A DNA stretch of 64,000 bases from Candidatus Kaiserbacteria bacterium (lineage in GTDB: Bacteria; Patescibacteriota; Minisyncoccia; Phycocordibacterales; Phycocordibacteraceae). Below are positions 20,693 to 35,956 of the stretch, piece by piece. The stretch's first letter is position 1; every line of letters begins with the position of its first letter. The DNA lies in NCBI GenBank assembly GCA_016182485.1, contig JACPGH010000003.1, forward strand, positions 70,331 to 134,330, in the 5' to 3' direction. The notes beneath the pieces were generated by a model. It did not search any database. It was given only the letters and a program-made list of their open reading frames with translations, and was not told the DNA's origin. The position numbers and the translations under genes are program-made.

Positions 20693-22342
20693 ATGACTAC
20701 CAAATATCTGAATACCGCGCTGGTTCTCGGCGCTTTCGTGTTCGCGCTTTCCGGGCTTGCCGCAAGAGCGCAGGTCAACGAAGCTGCCATTCAGTTTCCC
20801 GTCGCGGAGCTCGGCGGTTGCGGCAGCAAGGAGGAATGCAAGACCTATTGCGACGAGCCGGCGAACATGGAAGCCTGCATCGCGTTCGCCGAGAAGAATA
20901 ATCTGATGCCGCAAGAGGAGGTCCAGATGGCCAAAAAATTCATCGCCGCGGGCGCGAAGGGGCCGGGCGGCTGTACGGGCAAGGATTCCTGCGAATCGTA
21001 TTGCAACGATACGAGCCACATCGACGCCTGCATCTCTTTTGCAGAAGAAGCGGGCATGATGGCTCCGGACGAGCTCGCCGAGGCGAAGAAGGTGCAGGCC
21101 GCGATCAGGAACGGAGTCACGCCGCCGCCCTGCGGCGGGAAGAAAGCCTGCGATTCGTACTGCAGGGAGCCTCAGAACATGCCGGTGTGCATCACATTCG
21201 CCAAACAGGCGGGGCTCATGAGCGAGGAAGAGGCCGCGAACGCGGATAAAATGCTTGTGGCGATAAAGAACGGGGCGAAGCCGCCCGCCTGCGGCGGCAA
21301 AGAAGAGTGCGACGCGTACTGCTCTCAAGAAGAAAACTTCAATGAGTGCGTGGAGTTCGGCAGAGCGGCGGGCTTCATGTCTGAAAAAGATTACGAGATG
21401 GCCAAGAAAACGGGCGGGAAGGGACCGGGCGGCTGTCGCAGAGAAGAATGCGAGACTTTTTGTGAGAATCCGGAAAATCAAGAAATCTGCTTCAGCTTCG
21501 CCAAAGAGCACGGGCTCATATCAGAGGAAGATATGAAGAGAATGGAAGAGGGAGACAAAGGATTTCGCGAGAGCATTTCTAACGCGCCGCCCGAGGTAGC
21601 CGCGTGTCTTAAAGAAAAGCTCGGAGAAGAAAAGGCATCGCAGATCATGAGCGGCTCGGTGCGGCCGTCGCAGGAGATCGGCGAAACGATGAAAGCCTGC
21701 TTCGAACAAGTCATGAGCCAGCGACCGCAAGGCGAGCAGGGGATGCAAAGAGGCCCCGAGGGGCAGATGCCGCCGCAAGGATCCGGCGAAGACAGACCAA
21801 TGCCGCCCGAAGGTTATCAGGGACAAATGCCTCCGGAGGGATACCGAGGCCAAATGCCGCCCGAGGGGTATCAGAGACCTCCGGAAGGCACAATGCCCCC
21901 CGAAGGGTATCGGCCGCCGGAAGGAATGACTGGGCCGATGCCGTACGATGGCCAGCGTCCGCCGGAAGGCTATCAAGGCCAAATGCCGCCAGAGGGATAC
22001 CAAGGTCAAATGCCGCCAGAGGGCTACCAGATGCCTCCGCAAGAGGGTACGATGCCTCCGCCGACAACTGAATCCAGCTCGTCTGGCGGCGGCGAATCAA
22101 GTGGCGCGACAGCTCCCGCGCTTCCGGCCTCCGAGGCCGGAACCCCGACCGATAGCGGAGGGGCCGCACCTGCGCCGGCACTTCCGGCCTCCGAGGCCGG
22201 AACCCCGACCGATAGCGGAGGGGCTGCTCCGGCCCCCGCCCCGACCGATAGCGGAGGGGCCGCCCCAGAAACAAGCCTCCTCTCGCCGAGCTCTCTCATG
22301 GCCGCGGCCATCAACTTCTTCCGCCCCCTTTTCGTGAGATAA
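20693..22342 (+). CDS. secreted protein with six 4-Cys repeat modules and low-complexity PPEGYQGQM and APALPASEAGTPTDSGGAAP tail
   Basis: Signal peptide; six repeats of C-x4-C-x3-C-x(7-8)-C-I-x-F-(A/G)-x3-G-(L/M/F)-M each about 58 aa; degenerate Pro/Gly/Gln repeats. Confidence 0.6.
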   Translation: MTTKYLNTALVLGAFVFALSGLAARAQVNEAAIQFPVAELGGCGSKEECKTYCDEPANMEACIAFAEKNNLMPQEEVQMAKKFIAAGAKGPGGCTGKDSCESYCNDTSHIDACISFAEEAGMMAPDELAEAKKVQAAIRNGVTPPPCGGKKACDSYCREPQNMPVCITFAKQAGLMSEEEAANADKMLVAIKNGAKPPACGGKEECDAYCSQEENFNECVEFGRAAGFMSEKDYEMAKKTGGKGPGGCRREECETFCENPENQEICFSFAKEHGLISEEDMKRMEEGDKGFRESISNAPPEVAACLKEKLGEEKASQIMSGSVRPSQEIGETMKACFEQVMSQRPQGEQGMQRGPEGQMPPQGSGEDRPMPPEGYQGQMPPEGYRGQMPPEGYQRPPEGTMPPEGYRPPEGMTGPMPYDGQRPPEGYQGQMPPEGYQGQMPPEGYQMPPQEGTMPPPTTESSSSGGGESSGATAPALPASEAGTPTDSGGAAPAPALPASEAGTPTDSGGAAPAPAPTDSGGAAPETSLLSPSSLMAAAINFFRPLFVR

Positions 22343-22395
22343 ATCGAGCGCTCCGGCATTGAATTAACGCGCCCGATGGCGTATTCTCTGCCTAT

Positions 22396-22466
22396 TGCCG
22401 GCTCGTCTAAAGGTAGGACACATTCCTCTGGAGAATGTTATTGGGGTTCGAATCCCTGGCCGGCAG
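22396..22466 (+). tRNA. tRNA-Gln (anticodon CUG)
   Basis: U1:A72 pair and G73 discriminator (Gln hallmarks), D-stem GTCT/GGAC, anticodon loop CTCTGGA, T-loop TTCGAAT. Confidence 0.7.
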
Positions 22467-22678
22467 CAAGGAGCGAAGCGACGCAGTCCTGAGGAGTCTT
22501 CGACGAAGGGCATAGTGAGCGAAGCGACGCAGTCCTGAGGAGTCTTCGACGAAGGGCATAGTGAGCGAAGCGGACGAAGGGCATAGTGAGCGAAGCGACG
22601 CAGTCCTGAGGAGTCTTCGACGAAGGGCATAGTGAGCGAAGCGACGCAGTCCTGAGGAGTCTTCGACGAAGGGCGAGT
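22467..22678. repeat. 46-bp tandem repeat, about 4.5 copies, abutting tRNA-Gln 3' end
   Basis: Unit GAGCGAAGCGACGCAGTCCTGAGGAGTCTTCGACGAAGGGCATAGT repeated head-to-tail, one copy with internal deletion. Confidence 0.85.
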
Positions 22679-22715
22679 CTGAGCGTAGGTTAGAATAACC
22701 GAAGCCAAAGGGCGT

Positions 22716-22958
22716 ATGTATTTTGTCTATATCCTTGAATGCAAGAATGGTTCGTTGTACACGGGAATAACTACCGATGTCGCGAGGCGTTTTAAAGAGC
22801 ATTCCTCGGGCAGCGGCGGGCACTACACTAAATCACAGGAAGTCTCGCAGATAATCTACACCGAACAGCATCCGGATCGATCTTCAGCTTTAAAACGCGA
22901 AGCACAAATCAAGGGCTGGCGCCGCGAAAAGAAGCTGGCTCTGATAAAATCTAGCTAA
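22716..22958 (+). CDS. GIY-YIG nuclease-domain protein (YhbQ-like)
   Basis: N-terminus MYFVYILECKNGSLYTGITTDVARRFKEH matches GIY-YIG. Confidence 0.7.
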   Translation: MYFVYILECKNGSLYTGITTDVARRFKEHSSGSGGHYTKSQEVSQIIYTEQHPDRSSALKREAQIKGWRREKKLALIKSS

Positions 22959-22964
22959 AAAGCC

Positions 22965-23282
22965 ATGAACGATATACAGGAATTGACGAAGAAATGCAGG
23001 CAGGTAATGGACAAATATCAGATAGATTTTCCCGATGTAAAAATTGATCGAGATTACTTGCCATTCAAAATAGCAGAGGAGTTTGGAGAGCTGACGCAAA
23101 CGTATCTAATGCTCACCGATCGCGGACGGCAGAAGGGCAAGTCCAAAGAACAAATACAAGAAATGATGCGGGATGAATTCGCGGACATGTTCGCATATCT
23201 TCTGCTTTTTGCGGAGGATGAAGGAATCGATCCGGCAGAAGCGCTGGAAAAGAAGTGGTTTAAATATATCGAGAAAGCGTGA
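22965..23282 (+). CDS. MazG-like nucleotide pyrophosphohydrolase (small form)
   Basis: EEFGELTQ...DEFADMFAYL pattern of MazG/HisE all-alpha NTP-PPase. Confidence 0.55.
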   Translation: MNDIQELTKKCRQVMDKYQIDFPDVKIDRDYLPFKIAEEFGELTQTYLMLTDRGRQKGKSKEQIQEMMRDEFADMFAYLLLFAEDEGIDPAEALEKKWFKYIEKA

Positions 23283-23336
23283 TTCATATGAATGAAGTTA
23301 TCGTAGTGAACGAAAAAGACGAGGTCACAATAAACT

Positions 23337-23951
23337 ATGGAAAATATACTAATTAGGACAGAAACCCCACGAGAATACCGGGAAACGGAAAACGTGGTGC
23401 GGGAGGCCTTCTGGGATGTATACAAGCCCGGCTGTGATGAGCATTTGATCATTCATAAGCTCAGGCAATCTCCCGATTTTATTGCGGAGCTGGACTTTGT
23501 CGCTTGCGACGGAGACGACATTGTAGGAGTGGCGATCTGTCCGAAGGCGAAGATAATAAGCGACCAGGGTCAGGAATTCACTGTCTTGTCCATGCTCGTC
23601 GGCGTACTGCCATCCCATCAGAAGAAGGGAATCGGCTCAATGCTTATTAACCGGGTCATAGAAGCGGCGCGGTCTCTGGGACACAAGGGAATCGTCATAT
23701 TCGGCGACCCGAAGTACTATCCGCGGTTCGGATTCAGGAACGCGATGGACTACGGCATACAGACCTCCGACGGGCAAAACCTCGATCCGTTCATGGCTTT
23801 GGAGCTTGGAGAAAACAGTTTGGACGGCATCCGGGGCAGATTCCACGAGGCTCCAGCCTTCCAGCCGATACGCGATAGCGCCGAGCTCGCGGCGTTCGAC
23901 ATGCAGTTTCCGCCTAAAGAAAAGCACGTTACCGATACGCAATTGAAATAG
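23337..23951 (+). CDS. GNAT-family N-acetyltransferase (YhbS-like)
   Basis: Acetyl-CoA binding segment QKKGIGSMLINRVIEAARSLG. Confidence 0.6.
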   Translation: MENILIRTETPREYRETENVVREAFWDVYKPGCDEHLIIHKLRQSPDFIAELDFVACDGDDIVGVAICPKAKIISDQGQEFTVLSMLVGVLPSHQKKGIGSMLINRVIEAARSLGHKGIVIFGDPKYYPRFGFRNAMDYGIQTSDGQNLDPFMALELGENSLDGIRGRFHEAPAFQPIRDSAELAAFDMQFPPKEKHVTDTQLK

Positions 23952-23960
23952 TCAACTAGG

Positions 23961-24359
23961 TCAACAATACAGCGAATAATCCGGGTAGTTATCCCGGACT
24001 TCGCCTTTCCACCAATCGGTCTCCCGTGAACCGCTCACATCTCCTTTGCCGTAGACGAGCAGGACACGCACGAGTTTCTTGTCCTTATGGACCGCGATGA
24101 TGCACCGATTGCCGGAGCCGTGCCGGGATTCTTTCGTGCCGGCGACGCGGAACTCGGTCTTGCAAATCAAAATATTTTTTCTGTCCACGATCGTCTCGAC
24201 GTAGTTATTGATGCCGATAAGCGTTTCGATGCGTTTCAGCTCCTCCTCTACAGCGCGCCAGGTAATGTCCCACGCTCCTTTATATTTCTTACGGAAAGAG
24301 GAGATGAAATGGCGCTCGGCATATTTGGACACCTCGACGCCATAAGGGTCAGTAGACAT
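23961..24359 (-). CDS. putative toxin, RelE/ParE-superfamily-like
   Basis: C-terminal NRCIIAVHKDKKLVRVLLVYGKGD resembles the RelE/ParE YRLIYRV...VYILRVGHRKDVY core; downstream of and overlapping the HTH-Panacea gene. Confidence 0.35.
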   Translation of the reverse strand: MSTDPYGVEVSKYAERHFISSFRKKYKGAWDITWRAVEEELKRIETLIGINNYVETIVDRKNILICKTEFRVAGTKESRHGSGNRCIIAVHKDKKLVRVLLVYGKGDVSGSRETDWWKGEVRDNYPDYSLYC

Positions 24360-25116
24360 ACTCCGGATCTTGCTGGGTGATGAGCTCGTAGGGAATCACC
24401 TCGTCCGGAGCGCACAGTTTGTAAGGCAGCTGCTCGTGCGTGAAGTTCACGATTTCCTGCGTTCTCTTGCGCTTCCACTTCGTGCCGATTTTTTGGATAA
24501 GCTCCTTTTCGCCAGGTTCAAGCAGGCCCAATTTTTCTTGCTCTGCGCCTTCGCTTATCTGCACGAGAATCGCATCGCCTTTGTGATCGAGCGTTATTTT
24601 GCCGTCTTCTTCCAGTTCAGCAACGGCGCGAAAGTACGGATCGGGTACCGGCCCGTATGCGCGGCGAAGATACTGCATGCCGCTCATACTTTCCAAATTT
24701 TCGTAATACCACGCGAAGTCAGCGAGGTAGAGCAGTTTCGCGAGCTTCGTTTTCGGAATTTTCCCGTCGTCCGCCGAAGATTTCGCGGTACGCAGGAATG
24801 CAAGCACCATCTGCTTATACTTTTCGTAATTCGGAATAATCGCATTCGAAAACTCCTCAATTGAAATGCCAAGCAAAGAGCAGAGTCTTTTCGCTTCCGG
24901 CAGGGTCATGTCACGGGCGCCTCTCTCCACCGCCATATACGACTGGCGGGAAAGTCCGATTTTTTCGGCCGCTTCCGACTGCGACAGGCCGCGCTCAAGG
25001 CGCAGCGCCTTGATTAACGACCCGTATTTGGTGCTCATATCTCTATTGTGCATAAACTGTGTATAAAATGCAAACAGGATATGTTGATAATATAGACATA
25101 CGCATGATATAATCAT
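24349..25116 (-). CDS. XRE-HTH + Panacea (DUF4065) domain antitoxin-like protein
   Basis: N-terminal HTH_3 (LRLERGLSQSEAAEKIGLSRQSYMAVERG); C-terminal KLAKLLYLADF...YGPV matches the DUF4065/GepA signature. Confidence 0.65.
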   Translation of the reverse strand: MIISCVCLYYQHILFAFYTQFMHNRDMSTKYGSLIKALRLERGLSQSEAAEKIGLSRQSYMAVERGARDMTLPEAKRLCSLLGISIEEFSNAIIPNYEKYKQMVLAFLRTAKSSADDGKIPKTKLAKLLYLADFAWYYENLESMSGMQYLRRAYGPVPDPYFRAVAELEEDGKITLDHKGDAILVQISEGAEQEKLGLLEPGEKELIQKIGTKWKRKRTQEIVNFTHEQLPYKLCAPDEVIPYELITQQDPEYVY

Positions 25117-25278
25117 GAAACAGATTTAAGAAATAGGTAATAGCACGAGGCCGTAGGGCCGTTCAATAAATGTGAAGAAAGTGTTAAAGTGATGCTTTTC
25201 TCCACCCTTATTTTTCGCGGGGGATTCTTTTTGAAATGGAATGGGCGGAAAACGGGGCTCGGTCGGGCTATGTGCATT

Positions 25279-25315
25279 ATATTACACGATTGTAATATGT
25301 TGCAAGTTGCAATAT
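25279..25315. promoter_or_regulatory. clustered short palindromes in divergent promoter region (candidate operator)
   Basis: ATTACA-cga-TTGTAAT followed by TTGCAA-g-TTGCAA, 13 bp upstream of the XRE start. Confidence 0.3.
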
Positions 25316-25327
25316 ACTGCATAGCAT

Positions 25328-25531
25328 ATGGCGTCAGGAAAAAAATTAGGAGAAAATCTAAGAAAGCTCCGGCTGCGAAGGAAAATGTCGCAAGGAGACC
25401 TTGCGGCCGCCTTGAATGTGGATAGAGCATATATAAGCAATATTGAAAACGGTCGAATGAACCCCACGCTTTCAACCTTGGAAAAAATAGCTGGGGCCTT
25501 AGGAATTTCTAGTAGTGAATTGCTAAAATGA
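25328..25531 (+). CDS. small XRE-family HTH regulator (controller C-protein-like)
   Basis: 67 aa HTH_3; stop codon 1 nt before the start of the 1603-aa gene. Confidence 0.6.
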   Translation: MASGKKLGENLRKLRLRRKMSQGDLAAALNVDRAYISNIENGRMNPTLSTLEKIAGALGISSSELLK

Positions 25532-25532
25532 C

Positions 25533-28500
25533 ATGGCAAGATATCGCACACGATTTGACGCAAAAGCGTATTGGGCAACCAAACCTTGGTGCACAGTCTG
25601 CAAGAAGCACAAAGTTAAAGATGGTGCGGTGTGCTCTGAGTGTAAAAAAGAAGCTATGAAGCAACAACGCGAAATTAATAGAAATAAAGAATCAATCGCG
25701 GACATTCCAGCTGCAGTGGAAGTTCAGGTTTCAGAACCACGAAAAAAGCGCATTTCTAATCTTTCTGCTGAGGCGCAGAATAAAGTCATTCGACTCTTTA
25801 CATACTTGGAAAAAGCTCTCGCCATCGATGATTCCATCGTTCGAGATTTTCGTACTACTTCAGCAGCACCCTCACCATGGTGGCTCGCTGATTATCCAAC
25901 GGATCTTGAGAACCTGACCATCCGGCCTTTTGATACTGAAAAAACTCCTGAAGGAGTACAAGCAACTTCGTGGCTCAAGGTAGAAAAGAAAAACATCAAA
26001 GCTGCACCTGAATTGCCGGACCAACTTAAAGAATGGATTGATGACGTAAATCCACTGCAGGAACCGACTGTTAAAGAAAAGATTGATCGCAAAGTCCTAT
26101 TTACAGATTACAAGGATCGGGAGAAAGAATTCAGAAATTTCCGAAAAGATTATAGGCAAGGAGATGGTGTGCCTGAGAGCTTGAAAGATTGGGTGACGAT
26201 TTTGCCAAATAAGTTACCCGAAATTATCAGTGTGAGATATGAGCCCGATTATTGGGTAGGCCACACAGAACTTACAGAGTTACTTGATGGATACACCAAA
26301 AACGATTGGAAGCCATGGGCAGAGCAGGTGAAGAAAGTTTATAAAGCAAATCTTCTCTACGATCAGCTATACGCCCTCCGTCTTCTTTTGAAAAACGAGG
26401 GAGATAACTATGAATTACTCTTAGGCCAAGGCATCTTGACTTGGCAGCATCAGGGAGTGGGTACAATCTACACCCCAATTTTTCTTAGTCCTCTTACACT
26501 CGATTTTGACGCTTCAAAAAGAACGATTAAGATCAACCCCGACCCCATGTTCAGGAATTTCGTAGAGACATCAGCACTTTACGAGACAGACAATCCAGCT
26601 GAAATGGATCTCGTCACATGGGGAGACACAATCAACGCCAACCCTTTTGATTTTTGGCATCTTGAGACACTCAAAGGTCAGGCACGAACACTCATTAACT
26701 ATGTCTCTCCGTATGGCGAAGATAAGTTCACCGATCAAATTATCTCAGCTCCTACCGCGTCACAGAATCCGAGTATCTGGAATGCACCAGTGATATTTGC
26801 TCGAAAGCGAACAAACGATATGTGGTCAAAGTATGCGGCCACTATTCGCAAAGACATCGAACAGTACGGGATTGAAGCGACTGAGTTCATCACTGATCTT
26901 GTCGGCGAATATGACGAGGTTTCCGTTAAGCTTAACGGCGGATCTGGAGAGAAAATGGAAAGTGACAGCATATCTATCCCAGAATCAGAGCTCCATTTTC
27001 CATTGCCTTGGAATGATGAGCAGAAAAGGATCGCAGAAAGGCTAGATGCAAACTATGGTGTCGTAGTAAAGGGGCCGCCGGGAACTGGAAAAAGTCATAC
27101 CATCGCAAACTTAATTGCCCGCTTCTTAGCAGAAGGCAAGAGCGTTTTAGTCACATCTCAAACAAGTAAGGCTTTGGAGGTATTGCGTGACAAGCTACCC
27201 GAAAACATCAGAAGTCTTGCCGTATCTCAGTTACAACAATCTGCGAAGCGAGACGACATACTCCAACAGTCAATTGGTGAAATTAGTTCTAATCTTGGCG
27301 AACGTGACACTAAATTTAGTGAAGCTCGAGCGGAAAATATTCGTAGAGAACTAAAGAGAGTAAGAGAAGAAAAAGCTGCTCTCGCGGCAAAGATACGACA
27401 GTACATCCTAACCGATTCATCGGAAAAGTTGATTATTGAGGGAGAAGAGATTAAACCTATCGATGCTGCAAAGTTTGTCGATAAGAACAAAAACCATAAG
27501 GCAATCGCCTGGTTTACTGATAAGGTCCCATTCGACGCCGATCCTAAATTTACTGAGGAAGATTTGCAGGAGCTATATGATATCGCTCGAGCTGTAGAGG
27601 CCGTAGATCGTACTCTCTATAAGGAAGACTTACCTGATCCATCGATCCTTCCAAATGAGGACGTGGTACTTAGCGCCTTTGCCTCGTATCGCGATTTCAG
27701 CGCGAAATCAAAATATTCAACAAATGGAGCGTTCAGCGAAGCGAAGATTGATCAAGAAAAACTTGGTCAACTGTGGGAACTTCTACATAAAGCCAAAAAG
27801 GTGTTGATGTCGATCAATAAAAATTACGAACAGGAAATATTTAACGCGTGTGCAATTAGTCAGAATGAGCGTGAGAAGTGGTCGTCTATCCTCTCAAAAA
27901 TCTCAGAGAAAATTCGGATCACTGCTAAAGGAAAAAACAGCACGATTGGTCACGTCATCTCTGGTCAGTCAAACCTTTCCATACATGATCTGCGGGAGGC
28001 GGCAGAAGCTTTGTATGCAAAAACATCAAAGGGCCAGCTGGGAACGTTCAGTAGAATGCTCCTATCTGGAAACGCAAAACGAATCCTTGAGACCTATAAA
28101 GTTGATGGGGTTGAACCTGATAACCCAGAGAGGGCAGAAATTCTGCGAAATTCTATACTTGTTGAAGAAGCAGAACGTGATATTAAGATTCTTCTCGAAC
28201 AGGGCCTTTCAACTATCAAGAACCAGCCTGAAATCGATGTCGATCATCTCGATATGATTCAGCTCGAAGTATTTGTTTCAGGTCTTCAGAGATTGGTAAA
28301 TTACCACGCCGACTTTTCAGCTATTGATTCTTGCTTTAATGAAGTGAAGGAACTTTCCGACTTCTCATTCACGAAGAAAGAAGAGATTGAAACTGCTATT
28401 GAACTAACTGCATCACATGCGGCTTCTTTCGAGCTCAAGAACCTAGAGAAGTCATTCACTGAATGGGAAGACTCAATCCGATCATCTGTGAATTTCCGTA

Positions 28501-30344
28501 TACAGCATGCTATCGTTGATGATCTTACTCAGGCAATCGCAAAACGTAACTCTACGGGATGGAAAAACTGTGTCGAGGAGCTTGATTTGCTTGTCGCGAA
28601 GAAAGAAAAGGCAATCAGACTTAGTGAGTTGTGCGATAAGCTTAGAAAGCAAGTACCTCGGCTTTGTGAGGAGATTATTGAGCTTGCCGATCAGAAACAG
28701 AGATTTGATTGCCCGGAAAATCTACTCGTTGCATGGAAAGTTGCTCGACTTGAATCGTGGCTCGACAGCATTCATGACCATGACGACATTGATACTTTGC
28801 AGGACCAGCTTGAACGTCTAAGCAAAAAGGAATTCGAGCTTAATTCCGAGCTTGTAACTGTGCTTGCTTGGCAGCGTCAAATCGACAAAGTTACCAAACG
28901 CCAACGCGATGCTTTGATGGCTTGGTCTGACGCAATGAAAAAGTACGGTAAGGGACTCGGAAAATACGCGAACAAATGGCTCAACTCGGCTCAACAGTCC
29001 CTCAAGGAAGCAAAAAATGCAGTTCCAGTTTGGATCATGCCCTTGCACCGGGCAGCTCAGATGTTCTCGGATCCTACTCCGGGTATGTTCGACGTAGTGA
29101 TTTTCGACGAGGCGAGTCAGTGTGATATTCGTGGTCTAACTATCGGATATCTCGGTAAGAAATTACTCGTTGTGGGCGATGATGATCAAATTAGTCCAGC
29201 TGGAATCTTTCAGGATCTAGAAAAGACATTCGAGCTCATTTCTCGATTCCTCTTCGATATTCCTCATAAAGACAATTTTTCAATTACCTCAAGTCTATTT
29301 GATCTCGCAAAAATCCGCATGCCGAACCTGATTCAACTAAATGAGCATTTCAGATGTGTTCCGGACATCATTGGTTTTAGTAATCACTATATTCCAGGAT
29401 ATAACCACAAAATTCAGCCGCTCCGTCATCCTAATCCAAAAGGTCTTCTTAAGCCTGCGCTTGTGCCAAAATTAGTAGAAGGTGGGTATCAAAACACCAA
29501 TAACAAAGTAAACGAACCTGAAGCAAAGGCGATTGTCGAGAAGCTTGTAGAGCTTCTTGAAGATCCGAATTACCAGAAGCGGCCGGATGGCCGTCTCTGC
29601 ACCTTTGGGATTATTTCTTTGCTTGCAGAGGACCAAGCAAAATACATCAAAGATTTAATTTTGAAGCATCCGAAGATCGGAGAGAAGATAATCGAAGAGA
29701 GAAAGATTATCTGTGGAGATGCATATGCCTTCCAAGGCGATGAGCGTGACGTAATGCTTTTGTCTATGGTAAGAGCGCTTGACCCGAACAATCTGAATGA
29801 TACAGTTGCACCTCTTATCGACAAAGGGGCAGCACAGCGCTTCAATGTGGCAGCTACTCGCGCACGCGATCAAGTATTTCTCTTTCATTCCATTCCTTTG
29901 GAACAATTCCGAAATCAAAACGATTGGCGCTTCAAGCTCCTCAATTGGTACTACGATCCAAAGAAAGAAGAAATTAAAGCGGGTCGTGAAGCGCTCAAGA
30001 GAGAATTCGATTCAGGTAGAGCGTCACAATTCTCGTACGAAGTCGGGAATCTTATCCTGGATAAAGGCTATCGGGTCTTGCCTGAGTATCCGCTGATTGG
30101 TTACCGTATTGATCTTGTTGTGCAGGGTGCCGAAGCTCGTCTTGCGGTCGAATGTGACGGGGATCAATATCACACGCTCGAAAATTGGGAAGAGGATCAA
30201 ACACGTGAACGTCAGCTACGTCGTGCTGGTTGGGAATTCTGGCGCGTAACCGGCAGTTCCTTCTATCGCCATAAAGAAAAAGCACTCTATAGTCTTTGGA
30301 AAAAGCTCGATGAACTTGGGATCAAGCCGATAATTGATTCTTAA
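25533..30344 (+). CDS. DUF4011 + superfamily-1 (Upf1-like) helicase + C-terminal DUF559/Vsr-like endonuclease, Hhe-like defence protein
   Basis: N-terminal Cys4 ribbon CTVCKK...CSECKK; DUF4011-like LLLGQGILTW block; Walker A GPPGTGKSHT; Walker B VIFDEASQ; C-terminal GYRIDLVV...ECDGDQYH DUF559 motif. Confidence 0.8.
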   Translation: MARYRTRFDAKAYWATKPWCTVCKKHKVKDGAVCSECKKEAMKQQREINRNKESIADIPAAVEVQVSEPRKKRISNLSAEAQNKVIRLFTYLEKALAIDDSIVRDFRTTSAAPSPWWLADYPTDLENLTIRPFDTEKTPEGVQATSWLKVEKKNIKAAPELPDQLKEWIDDVNPLQEPTVKEKIDRKVLFTDYKDREKEFRNFRKDYRQGDGVPESLKDWVTILPNKLPEIISVRYEPDYWVGHTELTELLDGYTKNDWKPWAEQVKKVYKANLLYDQLYALRLLLKNEGDNYELLLGQGILTWQHQGVGTIYTPIFLSPLTLDFDASKRTIKINPDPMFRNFVETSALYETDNPAEMDLVTWGDTINANPFDFWHLETLKGQARTLINYVSPYGEDKFTDQIISAPTASQNPSIWNAPVIFARKRTNDMWSKYAATIRKDIEQYGIEATEFITDLVGEYDEVSVKLNGGSGEKMESDSISIPESELHFPLPWNDEQKRIAERLDANYGVVVKGPPGTGKSHTIANLIARFLAEGKSVLVTSQTSKALEVLRDKLPENIRSLAVSQLQQSAKRDDILQQSIGEISSNLGERDTKFSEARAENIRRELKRVREEKAALAAKIRQYILTDSSEKLIIEGEEIKPIDAAKFVDKNKNHKAIAWFTDKVPFDADPKFTEEDLQELYDIARAVEAVDRTLYKEDLPDPSILPNEDVVLSAFASYRDFSAKSKYSTNGAFSEAKIDQEKLGQLWELLHKAKKVLMSINKNYEQEIFNACAISQNEREKWSSILSKISEKIRITAKGKNSTIGHVISGQSNLSIHDLREAAEALYAKTSKGQLGTFSRMLLSGNAKRILETYKVDGVEPDNPERAEILRNSILVEEAERDIKILLEQGLSTIKNQPEIDVDHLDMIQLEVFVSGLQRLVNYHADFSAIDSCFNEVKELSDFSFTKKEEIETAIELTASHAASFELKNLEKSFTEWEDSIRSSVNFRIQHAIVDDLTQAIAKRNSTGWKNCVEELDLLVAKKEKAIRLSELCDKLRKQVPRLCEEIIELADQKQRFDCPENLLVAWKVARLESWLDSIHDHDDIDTLQDQLERLSKKEFELNSELVTVLAWQRQIDKVTKRQRDALMAWSDAMKKYGKGLGKYANKWLNSAQQSLKEAKNAVPVWIMPLHRAAQMFSDPTPGMFDVVIFDEASQCDIRGLTIGYLGKKLLVVGDDDQISPAGIFQDLEKTFELISRFLFDIPHKDNFSITSSLFDLAKIRMPNLIQLNEHFRCVPDIIGFSNHYIPGYNHKIQPLRHPNPKGLLKPALVPKLVEGGYQNTNNKVNEPEAKAIVEKLVELLEDPNYQKRPDGRLCTFGIISLLAEDQAKYIKDLILKHPKIGEKIIEERKIICGDAYAFQGDERDVMLLSMVRALDPNNLNDTVAPLIDKGAAQRFNVAATRARDQVFLFHSIPLEQFRNQNDWRFKLLNWYYDPKKEEIKAGREALKREFDSGRASQFSYEVGNLILDKGYRVLPEYPLIGYRIDLVVQGAEARLAVECDGDQYHTLENWEEDQTRERQLRRAGWEFWRVTGSSFYRHKEKALYSLWKKLDELGIKPIIDS

Positions 30345-30348
30345 GGAT

Positions 30349-31902
30349 ATGCTAATTTCGAAAACTTTTTTTCAGCACTGCTTACATTGTCCAAAAGACG
30401 CGTGGCTGAAATTACACAAACCTGAGTTACGAGGCCATTTTGTACCATCTGAATTTGAGCTACACCTGATGGAGCAAGGGAATGAAGTAGAATCGTACGC
30501 CCGCAACTTATTCCTGGGAGGTATTGAAGTCTCGACCACGGGCAAACATGCAGTCGAAGATACCGTACGGCTTATGGCAGAACATATACCAGTAATTTTC
30601 CAAGCTACTTTTATTGTTGATGGATTTATTGTTCGCAATGATGCGTTGAAATGGAACCCAGAGACTAATCTTTGGGATTTGTACGAAGTCAAGGGGACCA
30701 ACTCAATGAGACTCGACCAGAAGGAACGCGACCATGTAACCGATATTGCCTTTCAAGCTTCAGTGATGCGACACGCTCGCGTACCTCTCGGGCATTGCTA
30801 TTTAGTACATTTAAATAAAGAGTATGTTCGTGCCGGTGATCTCGATATCGAGTCTCTTTTCTCCATAGACGATGTGACCGATGCTGTGAATGTTCGTATA
30901 CCCGAAATTGAGCCGAAGATGGAGGCTGCAAAGGAATATTTAAATCGAGTGACTGAACCGCCCGGAGGCTGTGAGTGCGTATATTCCACTCGACGTAATC
31001 ACTGCACCACGTTTCAGTATTCAAACGGGCACGTTCCAGAATACTCCGTCCACGACATTTCCCGCATTCACAAGACCAAGCTCGCTAATTTGATCGAGCA
31101 AAATATTTTTGCCCTTGATGGTGTTGATCCAGAATTGCATCAACTCTCAGAGAAGCAGGGCAACCAAGTGCGTGCCCATCAAACGCAGAAGCCCGTCATT
31201 GATGCAGATGAGATATCTCAGTTTCTCGAATCTTTACAATTTCCACTCTATTTTTTCGACTACGAAGCGTATGCGCCAGCTATACCCGCGTTCAATGGGT
31301 ATAGCCCTTACAAATTTATTCCGTTTCAATTCTCTCTACATATCCTTCGTGAGCCTGGTGGCGAACTCGAGCATGTAGAATTCCTACATGAGGAATTTTC
31401 AGATCCATCAGAGGCCGTTGCTTTAAAGTTGAGAGAAATCTATTCCGAAGGCTCAGTTATCGTTTGGCACGAGACGTTTGAAAAGACGTTTATAAATGCG
31501 AATATAGCTCAACGACTGCCACATCATGCTGAGTTCTTCGAGAAGTTTAACGGTGCTATGGCTGATTTAGAGAAACTCTTTGTTGCTCAGCATTACATTC
31601 ATCATGGGTTTCGGGGGAGAACCTCAATCAAAAATGTCTTGCCCGTGCTTGCGCCAGGATTCTCATATGCCGAACTGGAAATCCATGAAGGTGGTCAAGC
31701 CTCGAATGAATGGTGGCGCATGATAGCACCGATAACTTCGCTGGAGGAGAAAAAGGAAATTGCAAAAAACCTTAAGGAATATTGCGGCTTAGATACTAAG
31801 GCCATGTATGCTATTTGGAAGCACTTGTTTGCTCTGGTGAATCAGATTGTTGAGATGCCAAGCGGAGCTAGCACAGAGTTGTCAAAATCGTCAAAGGTGT
31901 AA
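30349..31902 (+). CDS. DUF2779-like protein (predicted PD-(D/E)xK nuclease fold)
   Basis: N-terminus LISKTFFQHCLHCPKDAWLKLH resembles DUF2779 start; SD AAGGA 6 nt upstream; start 4 nt after helicase stop. Confidence 0.55.
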   Translation: MLISKTFFQHCLHCPKDAWLKLHKPELRGHFVPSEFELHLMEQGNEVESYARNLFLGGIEVSTTGKHAVEDTVRLMAEHIPVIFQATFIVDGFIVRNDALKWNPETNLWDLYEVKGTNSMRLDQKERDHVTDIAFQASVMRHARVPLGHCYLVHLNKEYVRAGDLDIESLFSIDDVTDAVNVRIPEIEPKMEAAKEYLNRVTEPPGGCECVYSTRRNHCTTFQYSNGHVPEYSVHDISRIHKTKLANLIEQNIFALDGVDPELHQLSEKQGNQVRAHQTQKPVIDADEISQFLESLQFPLYFFDYEAYAPAIPAFNGYSPYKFIPFQFSLHILREPGGELEHVEFLHEEFSDPSEAVALKLREIYSEGSVIVWHETFEKTFINANIAQRLPHHAEFFEKFNGAMADLEKLFVAQHYIHHGFRGRTSIKNVLPVLAPGFSYAELEIHEGGQASNEWWRMIAPITSLEEKKEIAKNLKEYCGLDTKAMYAIWKHLFALVNQIVEMPSGASTELSKSSKV

Positions 31903-31983
31903 ACCTATTTACAACTTTGACATGGATCATTGTAGTGGCGCGCTGCCGTTTGAAAAATGAAGATTTTATGAGATTATTGAATT

Positions 31984-34900
31984 ATGTCCAGGAAGGCAGT
32001 TGAAACCTACATTTCCAGCGTTGACGAGAAATTAAAGACAGGGCAAGCTCGCGAACATGCCTATCGCCCGTGTTTTGAAGCTTTAATTCATGCACTTGAT
32101 CCAAAACTCAAAATCGTAAACGATCCCTCGCGTAGCGAGCACGGCAACCCCGATTTTGTCTTTTTACGCGGAGATATCACAGCAGGGTATGCGGAGACGA
32201 AGGATCTCAACGATGATCTTGATAAAACTGAGAAATCGGAACAAATGAAACGCTACCTCGGCTACTCGAATCTCATTTTGACCGATTATCTCGAATTTCG
32301 GTTTTTCAGAAACGGCTCACGCTACGGCGAGCCGATTCGTATCGCAACTGTATCCGGCGGAAAACTCGAAGAGAGGACAGAAACATACGACGAACTTGCA
32401 ACTGCGCTCGCCGACTTTCTCGCTGGTACTCCCGAGCCGATCAAGAACGGAAAGCGTCTTGCCGAGATCATGGGCGGTAAAGCGCGGCGCATTCGTGACA
32501 ATGTACATCGTTTTCTCACAGATAAAGCCGACAGCGATACTGACCTTCTACGAATATATGAGTCGATCAAGAAAATGCTCGTCCACGACCTCCCGCTTGA
32601 GGCGTTTGCCGATATGTACGCGCAAACGCTCGTCTACGGTCTTTTTGTCGCACGCTATCACGACGACTCCGTCGATACATTCTCTCGCTCCGAGGCACGC
32701 GACCTCGTGCCGGAATCGAATCCTTTTTTGCGTCAATTCTTCAACCACATTGCTGGACCGGACTTCAACAAACGCCTGCGCTATATCGTGGACGAATTGT
32801 GCGTGGTGTTCGCCACGGCGAATGTGCGTGAATTGATGGAGCAATATTTCAAGCTGGATTTATGGGGAAAGGAACATGGGGGGCCAGATCCAGTTATTCA
32901 TTTCTACGAGGATTTCCTCAAAGAGTACGACGCGGAGCTGCGCAAGAAAATGGGCGCGTACTACACACCACTCCCGGTTGTGCGCTTTATCGTTCGCGCT
33001 ATAGATCATGTGCTCAAGACGGATTTCGGACTTGGGGATGGCCTCGCCGATACAACCAAACTCTCCGATGGAAGGCACAAGGTGCAAGTGCTCGATCCGG
33101 CCGTCGGCACCGGCACGTTCATCAGCGCTGTCATTCGCAACATCTACGAGCGATTTGTGAAGCAGGGTCAAAAGGGCCGATGGCCGACCTATGTCCACTA
33201 CGACCTCCTGCCGCGCATCCACGGCTTCGAGCTAATGATGACCGCCTACACCATCGCGCACTTGAAGCTCTCCATCGCGTTCAAACAAACAGGCTTCACC
33301 ATTTTTAACAAGCGGCTTGGCATCTATCTCACTAACTCGCTCGAAGAAGCGGGACCGCAAACCGACATGTTCTCACTCGGCTTCGCGCAGAGCATCGCGG
33401 AGGAAGCAAAGCAGGCGGCGGTTATTAAGAACGAGACTCCAATCATGGTTGTCCTCGGTAACCCGCCGTATTCAGGAGAATCGAGTAACGCATTTTACAA
33501 GGAACACGATGCTTACAAGATCGAGCCCACGGGCGGCAAGCTCAAGGAGCGCAACAGTAAATGGATCAATGATGATTATGTAAAATTCATTCGGCTTGCA
33601 GAAAGTTTGGTAGAGAAGAACGGCGAGGGTGTGGTCGCAATGATAACAGCACACGGCTATCTCGATAATCCTACATTCCGCGGAATGCGTTGGCATCTAA
33701 TGCAGACGTTCGAGAAAATTTACGTACTCGATTTGCACGGAAACGCAAACAAAAAGGAAAAGGCCCCTGATGGAAGCGAAGACAAGAATGTCTTTGACAT
33801 TATGACTGGTGTCTCTATTTTGATCGGAGTAAAGCACAAGAAATCCGCGGATAATCTTGCAACTGTCTTTCGCGCCGATTGTTTTGGCGCTCGAAAATTA
33901 AAGATAGATTTTTTGGAATCAAATTCGCTCGATACAATTTCTTGGCAAAAACTCAGACCATCCGCTCCCAATTATGAATGGGCAGCAAATGACGGCGAAG
34001 TAAGTGACGAGTATAAAAGAGGATTCTCTGTAACTGAACTCTTCACAGTTTCTAGTGTCGGTATCGTCACGTCGCGAGACGATTTTGTCATAGATATGGA
34101 CAAGCATACCCTCAGCAGACGAATTGAGGGATTTTTACAATCTGCAACGACCCAAGAAGCTCTCTCGAAATATGGTCTTAAAGAAAACCTGAAGTGGAAG
34201 GCAGTACAGGCTCTCAAACATAAGTACGACGAAGCACGCGTTATTCCAGTGAGTTACCGTCCCTTTGATTCTCGCTTCATCTACTACCATGACGATTTCA
34301 TTGAGAGACCGCGCGGAGAGGTAATGCAGTATTTTGTCGGTCACGAAAACATAGGTCTTGTCACAAACAAACGCATTGAAGGACCTCGCAAGTTTGCAGA
34401 TGCATTTTTATCCGATTGCGTTACTGATGCACGACGCGTTTCTTTAAAAGAGACGAACTATATTTTCCCACTTTATCTCTATGCAGAGGACGGTACGCGG
34501 GTATCAAATTTGAGCCAGGGCATCATGACACAGATCGCGAATTCGCTTGGTAGCGAACCGTCTCCGGAGAATATCTTTTATTATGTTTACGCAGGCCTTC
34601 ACTCACCGTCGTATCGAGAGAAACACAACGATTTTTTGAAAGCCACTTTCCCGCGCGTTCCTTATCCTAAAGACAAAAATCAATTTATGGGGCTGGCAGC
34701 GTTGGGCAAGGAATTACGCGAGCTTCACTTGCTCGAATCGCAGAAGGTGCGCAAGTACATAACATCATATCCTGAAAGCGGCTCGAATGTCGTCGAAAAG
34801 ATTGCTCGCAAGGGCGACGGAGTATATATCAACGAAACGCAACACTTCGGCGGTGTGCCGGATATTGCATGGAACTTCTATATTGGCAGCTACCAGCCTG

Positions 34901-35028
34901 CTCAGAAATGGCTCAAAGACCGCAAAGGTCGCACGCTCACGAACGAGAACATCGAGCACTACCAAAAAATCATCGTCGCCCTTGTCGAGACAGATCGAAT
35001 AATGAAAGAAATAGACAAAGCAGTATGA
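31984..35028 (+). CDS. MmeI-like Type IIG/IIL restriction-modification enzyme (nuclease + N6-adenine MTase + TRD)
   Basis: N-terminal PD...E-x-K (GNPDFVF...GYAETKD); MTase motif I DPAVGTGTF; motif IV NPPY (VVLGNPPYSG); about 350-aa C-terminal region. Confidence 0.7.
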   Translation: MSRKAVETYISSVDEKLKTGQAREHAYRPCFEALIHALDPKLKIVNDPSRSEHGNPDFVFLRGDITAGYAETKDLNDDLDKTEKSEQMKRYLGYSNLILTDYLEFRFFRNGSRYGEPIRIATVSGGKLEERTETYDELATALADFLAGTPEPIKNGKRLAEIMGGKARRIRDNVHRFLTDKADSDTDLLRIYESIKKMLVHDLPLEAFADMYAQTLVYGLFVARYHDDSVDTFSRSEARDLVPESNPFLRQFFNHIAGPDFNKRLRYIVDELCVVFATANVRELMEQYFKLDLWGKEHGGPDPVIHFYEDFLKEYDAELRKKMGAYYTPLPVVRFIVRAIDHVLKTDFGLGDGLADTTKLSDGRHKVQVLDPAVGTGTFISAVIRNIYERFVKQGQKGRWPTYVHYDLLPRIHGFELMMTAYTIAHLKLSIAFKQTGFTIFNKRLGIYLTNSLEEAGPQTDMFSLGFAQSIAEEAKQAAVIKNETPIMVVLGNPPYSGESSNAFYKEHDAYKIEPTGGKLKERNSKWINDDYVKFIRLAESLVEKNGEGVVAMITAHGYLDNPTFRGMRWHLMQTFEKIYVLDLHGNANKKEKAPDGSEDKNVFDIMTGVSILIGVKHKKSADNLATVFRADCFGARKLKIDFLESNSLDTISWQKLRPSAPNYEWAANDGEVSDEYKRGFSVTELFTVSSVGIVTSRDDFVIDMDKHTLSRRIEGFLQSATTQEALSKYGLKENLKWKAVQALKHKYDEARVIPVSYRPFDSRFIYYHDDFIERPRGEVMQYFVGHENIGLVTNKRIEGPRKFADAFLSDCVTDARRVSLKETNYIFPLYLYAEDGTRVSNLSQGIMTQIANSLGSEPSPENIFYYVYAGLHSPSYREKHNDFLKATFPRVPYPKDKNQFMGLAALGKELRELHLLESQKVRKYITSYPESGSNVVEKIARKGDGVYINETQHFGGVPDIAWNFYIGSYQPAQKWLKDRKGRTLTNENIEHYQKIIVALVETDRIMKEIDKAV

Positions 35029-35474
35029 TTGATTACGCACTTATCATAGGTGTCGTCTCAACAGGAGCGGCTGCGGTGGCCGCCTATTATGCCTACAAAG
35101 CGTACATAACAAACAATAGTCCGAAGCTAGTGGTCGAGGCACCATTCAATAGCTCGCTTCAACTCCGCAATGTGGGAACTGATGCTGCGAAAAACATCAA
35201 GGAACCGACCGGTATGTTTCGAGATATGCCGAGTGAGATATGGAATTTTACCGGCCCGATTGATTATTTGAGAGTTAAAAGTCCAGGTATTTCCCGGCAA
35301 ATAGATTTTCACGATGAGAAAAGAATCAAGCCATCGGACTCATCGATTGTTCGATTTGAATACGAAAATTCGGACGGAACCAGATTCTTTTCTGAAATCA
35401 AAGTCGAGCGAGGGCCTGCAACACAGCAGCTTTGGTTTGCAACACCAGTCCTAGTGAATTGGGGTAAATGCTAG
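35025..35474 (+). CDS. small membrane-anchored protein, last gene of cassette
   Basis: ATGA start/stop overlap with the MTase gene; single N-terminal TM helix (IIGVVSTGAAAVAAYYAY). Confidence 0.4.
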   Translation: MIDYALIIGVVSTGAAAVAAYYAYKAYITNNSPKLVVEAPFNSSLQLRNVGTDAAKNIKEPTGMFRDMPSEIWNFTGPIDYLRVKSPGISRQIDFHDEKRIKPSDSSIVRFEYENSDGTRFFSEIKVERGPATQQLWFATPVLVNWGKC

Positions 35475-35754
35475 GAGTCTACGCGTCCCCTTTGCCTTTA
35501 TTGGCGGGATGTGCGCGCACGGGCTGGGGCAAGCACATATGGATTTGAGGCCTCGGGCATTTCCGCGACGGGATCTGGCCCACTGGTGAGCGCCGCCGCT
35601 CTCTTGCAAGTCTAAAAGCGCGTTTTTATACACTTTCGTGATTGCATTGCACGAAGAATCTTGTTACTTTATATGCACAATGCAACGGAGGAACTTTAGA
35701 TAGCCGCCGCGAAGCCTGCTCGCAAGAGTGGGTATTCGTGGCGGCTTTTCTATT

Positions 35755-35825
35755 GCCTCCTTAGCTCAATGGTAGAGCACGCCTCTGAAAAGGGCGAGAA
35801 AGAGGTCCGATTCCTCTCGGAGGCA
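35755..35825 (+). tRNA. tRNA-Phe (anticodon GAA)
   Basis: GCTC/GAGC D-arm, anticodon stem CGCCT/GGGCG, loop CTGAAAA; one mismatch at acceptor 7:66. Confidence 0.7.
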
Positions 35826-35828
35826 CCC

Positions 35829-35900
35829 GCCCTCGTAAGCTAATGGATAAACTGTCGGGCTTCTATCCCGATCTTGGAGGTTCGAATCCTCCCGAGGGCA
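35829..35900 (+). tRNA. tRNA-Arg (anticodon UCU)
   Basis: GCCCTCG/CGAGGGC acceptor, anticodon stem TCGGG/CCCGA, loop CTTCTAT, T-arm GGAGG-TTCGAAT-CCTCC. Confidence 0.7.
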
Positions 35901-35956
35901 CAGTCCCATCGCAAACGAATTAGGACAGAAACCACATGACTACATGAAAGTCAGTC

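Follow-up and report, generated by a model that had tools for sequence, protein, structure and literature searches.

The panAT locus of Candidatus Kaiserbacteria, a probable toxin-antitoxin operon pairing an HTH-Panacea antitoxin with a predicted RelE/HigB2-like toxin

SocA of Caulobacter, the founding SocA/Panacea protein, is a ClpXP adaptor, and its partner SocB targets the replication clamp. The Panacea domain was defined by Kurata et al. 2022 (PMC8832971), who recorded helix-turn-helix (HTH) N-terminal domains in 343 Panacea antitoxins (PanAs), counted ParE among the domains of the partner toxins (PanTs), and described PanAs as complexing with, and neutralizing, their toxins; of the nine PanAT pairs validated there, none is described as RelE-type. 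Panacea is able to neutralize a toxin directly, and in multidomain antitoxins it may act as a sensor (Ernits et al. 2023, PMC10440598). The active site of Vibrio cholerae HigB2 comprises R51, R64, Y82, and K84, alanine substitutions of which lower activity 170- to 3000-fold, the R64, Y82, and K84 variants being 350- to 3000-fold less active (Hadzi et al. 2017, PMC5416850). The locus considered here, panAT, lies in a window of 64,000 nucleotides (nt) of Candidatus Kaiserbacteria DNA (contig JACPGH010000003.1, positions 70,331 to 134,330; all coordinates below are those of the window), and is probably a type II toxin-antitoxin (TA) operon of the PanAT kind, encoding an HTH-Panacea antitoxin, PanA, and a RelE/HigB2-like mRNase toxin, PanT.

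Two overlapping open reading frames (ORFs) are present on the minus strand, at 24349-25116 (255 codons from the first ATG) and 23961-24359 (132 residues, identical to the database entry 'hypothetical protein HYV30_01395 [Candidatus Kaiserbacteria bacterium]'). A reading of the DNA made by a model from the letters and their translations (the sequence-only reading) had proposed an HTH-Panacea ORF overlapping a downstream 132-residue ORF, an arrangement that is borne out, with an overlap of exactly 11 nt. Its assignment of the C-terminal domain of the upstream protein to DUF4065 also holds, in that SocA_Panacea (PF13274) matches PanA with an E-value of 2.7e-11 and 44.8 bits, against a gathering cut-off of 25.7, over profile positions 1-112 of 113. 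HTH_3 is likewise above its Pfam cut-off, and precomputed Pfam matches on homologous contigs concur with the membership of PanA in the Panacea family; NCBIfam and PADLOC scans of the upstream protein recognized the HTH and nothing else. Beyond the Pfam Panacea model, PanA has a conserved C-terminal tail with the pattern E.IPYELITQ[EQ]DP..VY, in which Q222 and P225 are invariant among 28 paired sequences. In other PanAs a linear neutralization of the Phd-C type is described (PMC10440598), by analogy with which this tail is a candidate toxin-neutralizing element.

As judged from predicted structures, PanT is a RelE-superfamily protein, nearest to V. cholerae HigB2 and to archaeal or Escherichia coli RelE. 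Two AlphaFold2 models, made from independent alignments of 38 and 101 sequences, agree (predicted local distance difference test 88.1 and 92.1, respectively; predicted template modelling (TM) score 0.84 each) on a beta-alpha-alpha-beta4-alpha topology, with the N-terminal strand, two helices, antiparallel sheet, and C-terminal helix that define the RelE/ParE superfamily fold. In Foldseek comparisons of the two models with the PDB, ranks 1-25 and 1-23 are all toxins of TA systems, chiefly RelE, HigB2, HigB, and YoeB at probabilities of 0.95-1.0, other folds being absent from the top 23. The top match is archaeal RelE, 1wmi_A (E 1.4e-3, probability 1.0, TM 0.78 to the target, root-mean-square deviation 2.8 Å; TM normalized to the target of 0.70-0.78 across the two models), which supports the earlier suggestion of a RelE/ParE-superfamily partner. 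The same suggestion had included an N-terminal extension of about 40 residues, and here the models disagree with it, since residues 1-47 are the beta1-alpha1-alpha2 with which the fold canonically begins. PanT is indeed some 35-40 residues longer than RelE, the additions being a beta-hairpin strand, a long HigB2-like beta-beta loop, and longer C-terminal helices. The family is well defined: its homologues number 489 at E <= 0.01, and a set of 1.84 billion proteins yields 217 representative clusters when grouped at 50% identity. The window protein has no match in Pfam, NCBIfam, PADLOC, or PHROGs, and 38 close relatives, scanned singly, have none in Pfam.

In the PDB, the sole meaningful sequence matches of a 101-sequence PanT profile are the HigB-2 chains of V. 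cholerae (E 0.017), with the profile segment 'iagtkeSaksSgnRcIvlvde..kiLlvYsKnd' aligned to 'VA-SKGKGKRGGSRIIYYFLDEKRRFYLLTIYGKNE' of HigB-2, the chain numbering of which agrees with Hadzi et al. 2017 (loop A53-S63, 65-IIYY-68). In this alignment PanT R85 corresponds to HigB2 R64 (conserved in 100/101), Y103 to Y82 (99/101), and K105 to K84 (100/101), such that three HigB2-type catalytic residues are each conserved in at least 99 of 101 representatives; R71 corresponds to R51. The sequence-only reading had drawn attention to a C-terminal motif, an Arg-hydrophobic run followed by VLLVYGKGD, and this motif is the predicted catalytic core, aligning to HigB2 R64...Y82-G-K84. Among the same representatives K67, which shares a strand face with R71, is present in 100 and S78 in 98, a basic character at position 80 and the S82-G83-N84 stretch being likewise conserved. 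Because the catalytic residues are conserved and ParE chains rank low in the Foldseek lists (probability about 0.5), PanT is most likely a ribosome-dependent mRNase of the RelE/HigB2-like type and not a member of the ParE branch.

The G83 column of the alignment contains 91 Gly and 8 Trp, the database translations placing Trp at TGA positions. Some family members (L091:2001-2408; P0227, P0228, P0235, and P0265) have in-frame TGA precisely at conserved glycines, e.g. S*NRC for SGNRC. This fits UGA being read as Gly (genetic code 25, Gracilibacteria/Absconditabacteria), with the database proteins translated using the wrong code.

The pairing of the two genes is strictly maintained. With each GTDB species represented by one genome (185,579 in all), a scan gave 144 confirmed matches, and in all 80 of the loci fetched a PanA homologue (E 1e-14 to 1e-112) is directly upstream on the same strand, with an estimated overlap of 3-14 nt, i.e. 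the two genes constitute a conserved unit. No third gene is conserved, the neighbours in the window not being kept in the fetched loci; the 142 nearest flanking ORFs match 140 different Pfam families, the commonest being the restriction-type helicases and methylases ResIII (7), MmeI_Mtase (3), and Type_ISP_C (3), together with NYN (5) and TypA (4-5). Among more distant relatives (~30% identity; ENA, JGI, and Logan contigs), four of the five with a readable upstream gene are also paired with a Panacea gene: in Firmicutes metagenome-assembled genomes from termite gut PanT is preceded by an HTH_3 plus Panacea gene with a 23-nt overlap, one PanT is paired with a 197-residue Panacea protein lacking a detected HTH, and another two are preceded by HTH-Panacea genes. 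Two short contigs remain, on one of which the upstream gene is on the opposite strand and without a Pfam record, and on the other is cut by the contig end. Since the strict overlapping pairing is kept amid unrelated flanks, also at ~30% identity, the pair appears to be an autonomous, horizontally mobile two-gene TA unit.

The titles of PanT records are overwhelmingly from Patescibacteria, and a Peregrinibacteria/Gracilibacteria subfamily exists; as far as genomic context indicates, panAT is scattered in variable, often restriction-modification-rich regions, mainly of Patescibacteria. Type IIG/ISP-like methylases or DUF2779 also flank the pair in loci L014, L024, L035, L039, L073, L074, and L091, and in a distant Firmicutes-type member (L086:536-1980) it adjoins an AbiEi/AbiEii abortive-infection pair. 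In one locus (L048:3947-4396), the sole such case among the 80, the toxin ORF is split in two with panA intact, the split toxin probably being a pseudogene. No relative was found in IMG/VR; phrog_5869 is matched weakly by distant members.

The length given for PanA in the sequence-only reading, 255 residues, did not survive, even though both of its domains did. PanA almost certainly begins with the ATG at 25038 and so has 229 residues: this codon is chosen by gene callers in four contigs carrying the identical gene, and homologues align from residue 1 or 2 of the 229-residue form in most of the 80 loci, 2 of which are cut by a contig end. With the gene callers, the homologue alignments, and the conserved upstream promoter/operator all favouring the shorter form, the 255-residue start was dropped, and domain coordinates were converted from the 255-codon numbering (HTH_3, residues 35-89; Panacea, residues 125-232) to that of the 229-residue protein (Table 1). 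Because the 65 nt ahead of the start are conserved though the flanking genes are unrelated, the 26 additional codons (25039-25116) would be promoter/operator and not PanA coding sequence.

Across 65 aligned sequences these 65 nt have the consensus ATGTCAAnnTTATCAACACnnnATGTTTGAnTTTTTTACATAnnTnTATATACTnnAnnTATG, in which the near-invariant columns are two TGT-N11-ACA boxes (O1 and O2) and the TA...T of a -10 hexamer, the end of which is 6-8 nt from the panA ATG in most of the sequences. Within the window the double-box pattern is present a single time, against 0 occurrences expected by chance, and in 31 fetched loci exactly once, always just 5' of panA; the spacing of the boxes varies in other loci. 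An HTH_3 domain encoded behind palindromic boxes that cover its own -35 hexamer and spacer, to which binding is predicted, is the arrangement of an XRE-type autoregulator, from which we infer that the HTH of PanA may autorepress the operon, as in classical type II systems. The panA mRNA is probably leaderless or near-leaderless, with the transcription start placed from conservation, which would explain the missing Shine-Dalgarno sequence. A sigma-70 scan of the window did not flag this promoter because its -10 hexamer is degenerate, making it recognizable only via the multi-locus alignment. On the opposite strand, at 25084-25113 (+), the scan region contains a strong sigma-70-like site (TTGATA-18-TATAAT, 11/12, with a TG extension) that overlaps O1; it could be a divergent promoter toward the HTH and helicase genes, or a chance outcome of an AT-rich palindrome.

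A mechanism can be proposed in which PanA dimers bind both TGT-N11-ACA boxes over the -35 hexamer and spacer, so repressing their own promoter. Translation of panT from the (near-)leaderless mRNA would be coupled to that of panA through the 11-nt overlap, and PanA would bind PanT directly, keeping it off the ribosome. Loss of PanA, or sensing by the Panacea domain of a trigger such as phage infection, would free PanT, which could then enter the ribosomal A site and cut mRNA by use of R85, Y103, and K105, with K67 and R71, so stopping translation and growth.

Several observations weigh against assignment of the pair as an HTH-Panacea antitoxin with a RelE/HigB2-like mRNase. No Pfam model of the RelE/ParE clan scores above threshold, the best being PF06296 at E 0.014 in 1 of 101 representatives, and the curated models for the superfamily (PF05016, PF06296, PF05015, and others) do not recruit PanT. 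The Foldseek E-values are modest (1e-3 to 1e-2), and hhalign, given the family profile and one RelE sequence of E. coli (= 4v7k), returned a probability of ~1% and E 0.05, in an alignment, pairing SGNR with SGYR, that is too weak to use. The position equivalent to HigB2 R51 is basic in just 52 of the 101 members, and the E113-T114 motif of PanT, outside the known catalytic set, is without a counterpart in the RelE or HigB2 mechanism. Toxicity, neutralization, and RNA cleavage are predictions for every family member, and a described cluster, T14, is marked 'notest' in its source table (see below). Operator binding by PanA and the leaderless start are predictions drawn from conservation.

The Glu-Thr motif bears on the possibility that PanT is a RelE-fold scaffold with another activity, e.g. 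that of a ribosome-independent RNase or an rRNA/tRNA nuclease, using a family-specific site that includes E113-T114 and K24. E113 is the only strictly invariant residue of PanT (101/101; T114 is present in 93/101), none of the three is in the HigB2/RelE catalytic set, the protein has extra C-terminal helices and the greater length described above, and a conserved fold is no guarantee of conserved function (PMC10440598). However, conservation is just as high for the HigB2-type residues, E113-T114 may have a structural role or touch the antitoxin, and nothing positive points to another substrate, making this alternative an unlikely one.

That PanT might instead be ParE-like, poisoning DNA gyrase and not cutting mRNA, is suggested by the single fold that RelE and ParE share, by the appearance of ParE2 (5czf_D) and PrpT (7ycs_A) in the Foldseek lists, and by ParE domains being known Panacea partners (PMC8832971). 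It is nonetheless improbable: the ParE chains are found low in those lists, at probabilities of 0.47-0.57, versus 0.95-1.0 for RelE/HigB2, and the only sequence-profile match is to an RNase, HigB-2. R85, Y103, and K105, all near-invariant, fall on catalytic residues of HigB2, and we know of no ParE toxin with such RNase catalytic residues. Highly improbable is the proposal that the pair is not a TA system at all and that the 132-residue protein is a non-toxic partner (e.g. an HTH co-regulator or a degenerate RelE-fold protein). In its favour, eight predicted PanTs were non-toxic in E. coli (Kurata et al., PMC8832971) and the toxicity of this family is itself a prediction; against it, the putative active site is strongly conserved over relatives of ~30% identity, TA modules typically show such strict overlapping two-gene synteny amid unrelated surroundings, and the toxin is disrupted in only 1 of 80 loci.

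Table 1. Coordinates of panAT features in the window, with the residues or sequences concerned and the basis of each assignment
Feature	Position	Strand	Residues or sequence	Basis or comment
panA, HTH-Panacea antitoxin	24349-25038	-	229 residues plus stop	Pfam domains, gene-caller start, homologue alignment
XRE-type HTH_3 domain of PanA	24850-25014	-	residues 9-63 of 229	HTH_3 E 2.2e-13
Panacea domain of PanA (SocA_Panacea, former DUF4065)	24421-24744	-	residues 99-206	PF13274
Conserved 23-residue C-terminal tail of PanA	24352-24420	-	residues 207-229	beyond Pfam Panacea model
panT, predicted RelE/HigB2-like toxin	23961-24359	-	132 residues	AlphaFold, Foldseek, family profile
panA stop/panT start overlap, 11 nt	24349-24359	-	ATGTCTACTGA	sequence read directly
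PanT model secondary structure			strand 7-10; helices 12-26, 28-42; strands 54-59, 63-70, 84-91, 96-104; helices 113-124, 126-131	
PanT predicted catalytic core	24045-24161	-	K67, R71, S78, H80, SGNR85, Y103, K105	conservation, HigB2 alignment
PanT start of C-terminal helix, family-specific motif	24021-24026	-	E113-T114	conservation
Operator-like box O1	25082-25098	-	TGTCTATATTATCAACA (TGT-N11-ACA)	upstream alignment, pattern scan
Operator-like box O2	25060-25076	-	TGTTTGCATTTTATACA	upstream alignment, pattern scan
-35 hexamer	25068-25073	-	TTGCAT (TTGAC-type), overlapped by O2	
-10 hexamer	25045-25050	-	CACAAT (consensus TATACT), ends 6 nt before panA ATG	TA...T columns conserved

The placement of the module at the edge of a defence island, as given in the sequence-only reading, agrees with its neighbours. 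A divergent C-protein-like HTH gene (67 residues, 25328-25531) is followed by a gene for a 1603-residue AAA_11/AAA_12 helicase with an MTES_1575 nuclease domain (25533-30344; PADLOC PDC-S37, E 4e-57), and a Type IIG restriction-modification enzyme (E 2e-286) is also present. The island that contains panAT spans 13 kb (22396-35901), between tRNA-Gln (22396-22467) and tRNA-Phe/tRNA-Arg (35754-35901), and encodes in addition a GIY-YIG protein, a MazG-like protein, a GNAT, and a DUF2779 protein. Just upstream of the C-protein-like HTH gene, three copies of a 14-nt near-palindrome, TGCAnTATAnTnCA, at 25273-25321 overlap sites that resemble promoters, on both strands, and suggest a controller-protein operator serving the PDC-S37-like defence gene, distinct from the panA operator. 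Immediately after tRNA-Gln, tandem repeats of a 46-nt unit, GAGCGAAGCGACGCAGTCCTGAGGAGTCTTCGACGAAGGGCATAGT, with partial copies (22471-22674), might, at this boundary of the island, be a scar left by integration or an array with a regulatory role; an Rfam scan of 21500-26000 found tRNA-Gln only, and no family for these repeats.

The genomes of Patescibacteria are tiny and the organisms difficult to grow in culture, and their growth control and phage resistance are little understood. Modules of the panAT kind are already catalogued computationally, the Patescibacteria-rich family being without a curated model, and panAT leaves the current understanding of TA systems unchanged; what is added is the mapping of a catalytic site, a corrected start codon, and a promoter, probably leaderless, with two conserved operator boxes. 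The family would justify its own model in Pfam or NCBIfam, by which 'hypothetical proteins' would gain a name. The clear catalytic-site prediction and the defined operator make panAT an easy candidate for work in E. coli and, if validated, PanT would be the first RelE-type Panacea partner, judged from Kurata et al. 2022 and Ernits et al. 2023. It may be, as a tentative proposal that we consider rather unlikely, that PanT represents a distinct, Patescibacteria-centred RelE branch, marked by the Glu-Thr motif and extra helices, with a target or chemistry that may differ and with Panacea perhaps acting as a phage sensor; were this so, the module would be among the commonest abortive-infection modules of ultra-small episymbiotic bacteria.

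Compared with described systems, the relationship to SocAB is limited to the antitoxin: SocA and PanA share the SocA_Panacea domain, SocB is unrelated to PanT, and nothing here suggests the SocAB mechanism. ParE of ParDE, a documented Panacea partner, has the same superfamily fold as PanT, but is a weaker match by Foldseek, and PanT has conserved RNase-type residues. The best structural matches are with RelBE (E. coli RelE, 4fxh/4v7j; Pyrococcus horikoshii aRelE, 1wmi), which is likewise antitoxin-first, with an autoregulated operon and ribosome-dependent mRNA cleavage, the last of these being predicted for PanT. By contrast, RelB is a ribbon-helix-helix protein and PanA an HTH-Panacea protein, there is no significant sequence match between RelE and PanT, and RelE Y87 is on helix alpha3, whereas the Tyr of PanT is on the last strand, as in HigB2.

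HigB2-HigA2 of V. cholerae (PDB 5ja8, 8a0x) resembles panAT in the RelE-type fold of its toxin, with a long basic loop before the Arg strand (PMC5416850), and in the motif G-x-R-(I/C)-I...L-L-x-x-Y-x-K, shared by HigB2 and PanT, that bears the catalytic Arg, Tyr, and Lys. The core alone of the two toxins aligns, however, at ~16-18% identity, and PanT, unlike HigB2, has an extra strand, longer C-terminal helices, and the invariant E113-T114. HigA2, like PanA, has an HTH, but is made up of a disordered N-terminal segment and the HTH, with no Panacea domain, and HigBA2 is toxin-first. Panacea systems, too, are toxin-first in 78% of cases (PMC10440598), in contrast to the antitoxin-first order of panAT.

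The closest described relatives are to be found in the survey of Kurata et al. (PMC8832971), in Dataset S1 of which the clusters T14, T28, T59, and one more have RelE/ParE/HigB-like HHpred or CDD matches. The description of PanT in the sequence-only reading as possibly an undescribed toxin subfamily was thus too strong, even though Pfam and NCBIfam have no model for it. The entries of T14 (pT15), all marked 'notest', have no CDD match and a 99.73% match to HigB-2 by HHpred; in those from Candidatus Saccharimonas aalborgensis and from a TM7 genome the N-terminal domain is an HTH and the order antitoxin-then-toxin at -11 nt, Pedobacter, Flexibacter, and Cryosericum entries also have the HTH, and Methanobacteria entries are without it. 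The window pair has the architecture of the two Saccharibacteria entries, with an HTH-PanA encoded first and -11 nt between the genes, and the archaeal T14 members resemble a distant member described here in having a Panacea protein without a detected HTH. Patescibacteria entries are few in that survey (at least two Saccharibacteria rows), whereas the PanT family described here is overwhelmingly from Patescibacteria. On the basis of architecture and description, as distinct from sequence, it is probable that the PanT family and cluster T14 are one and the same.

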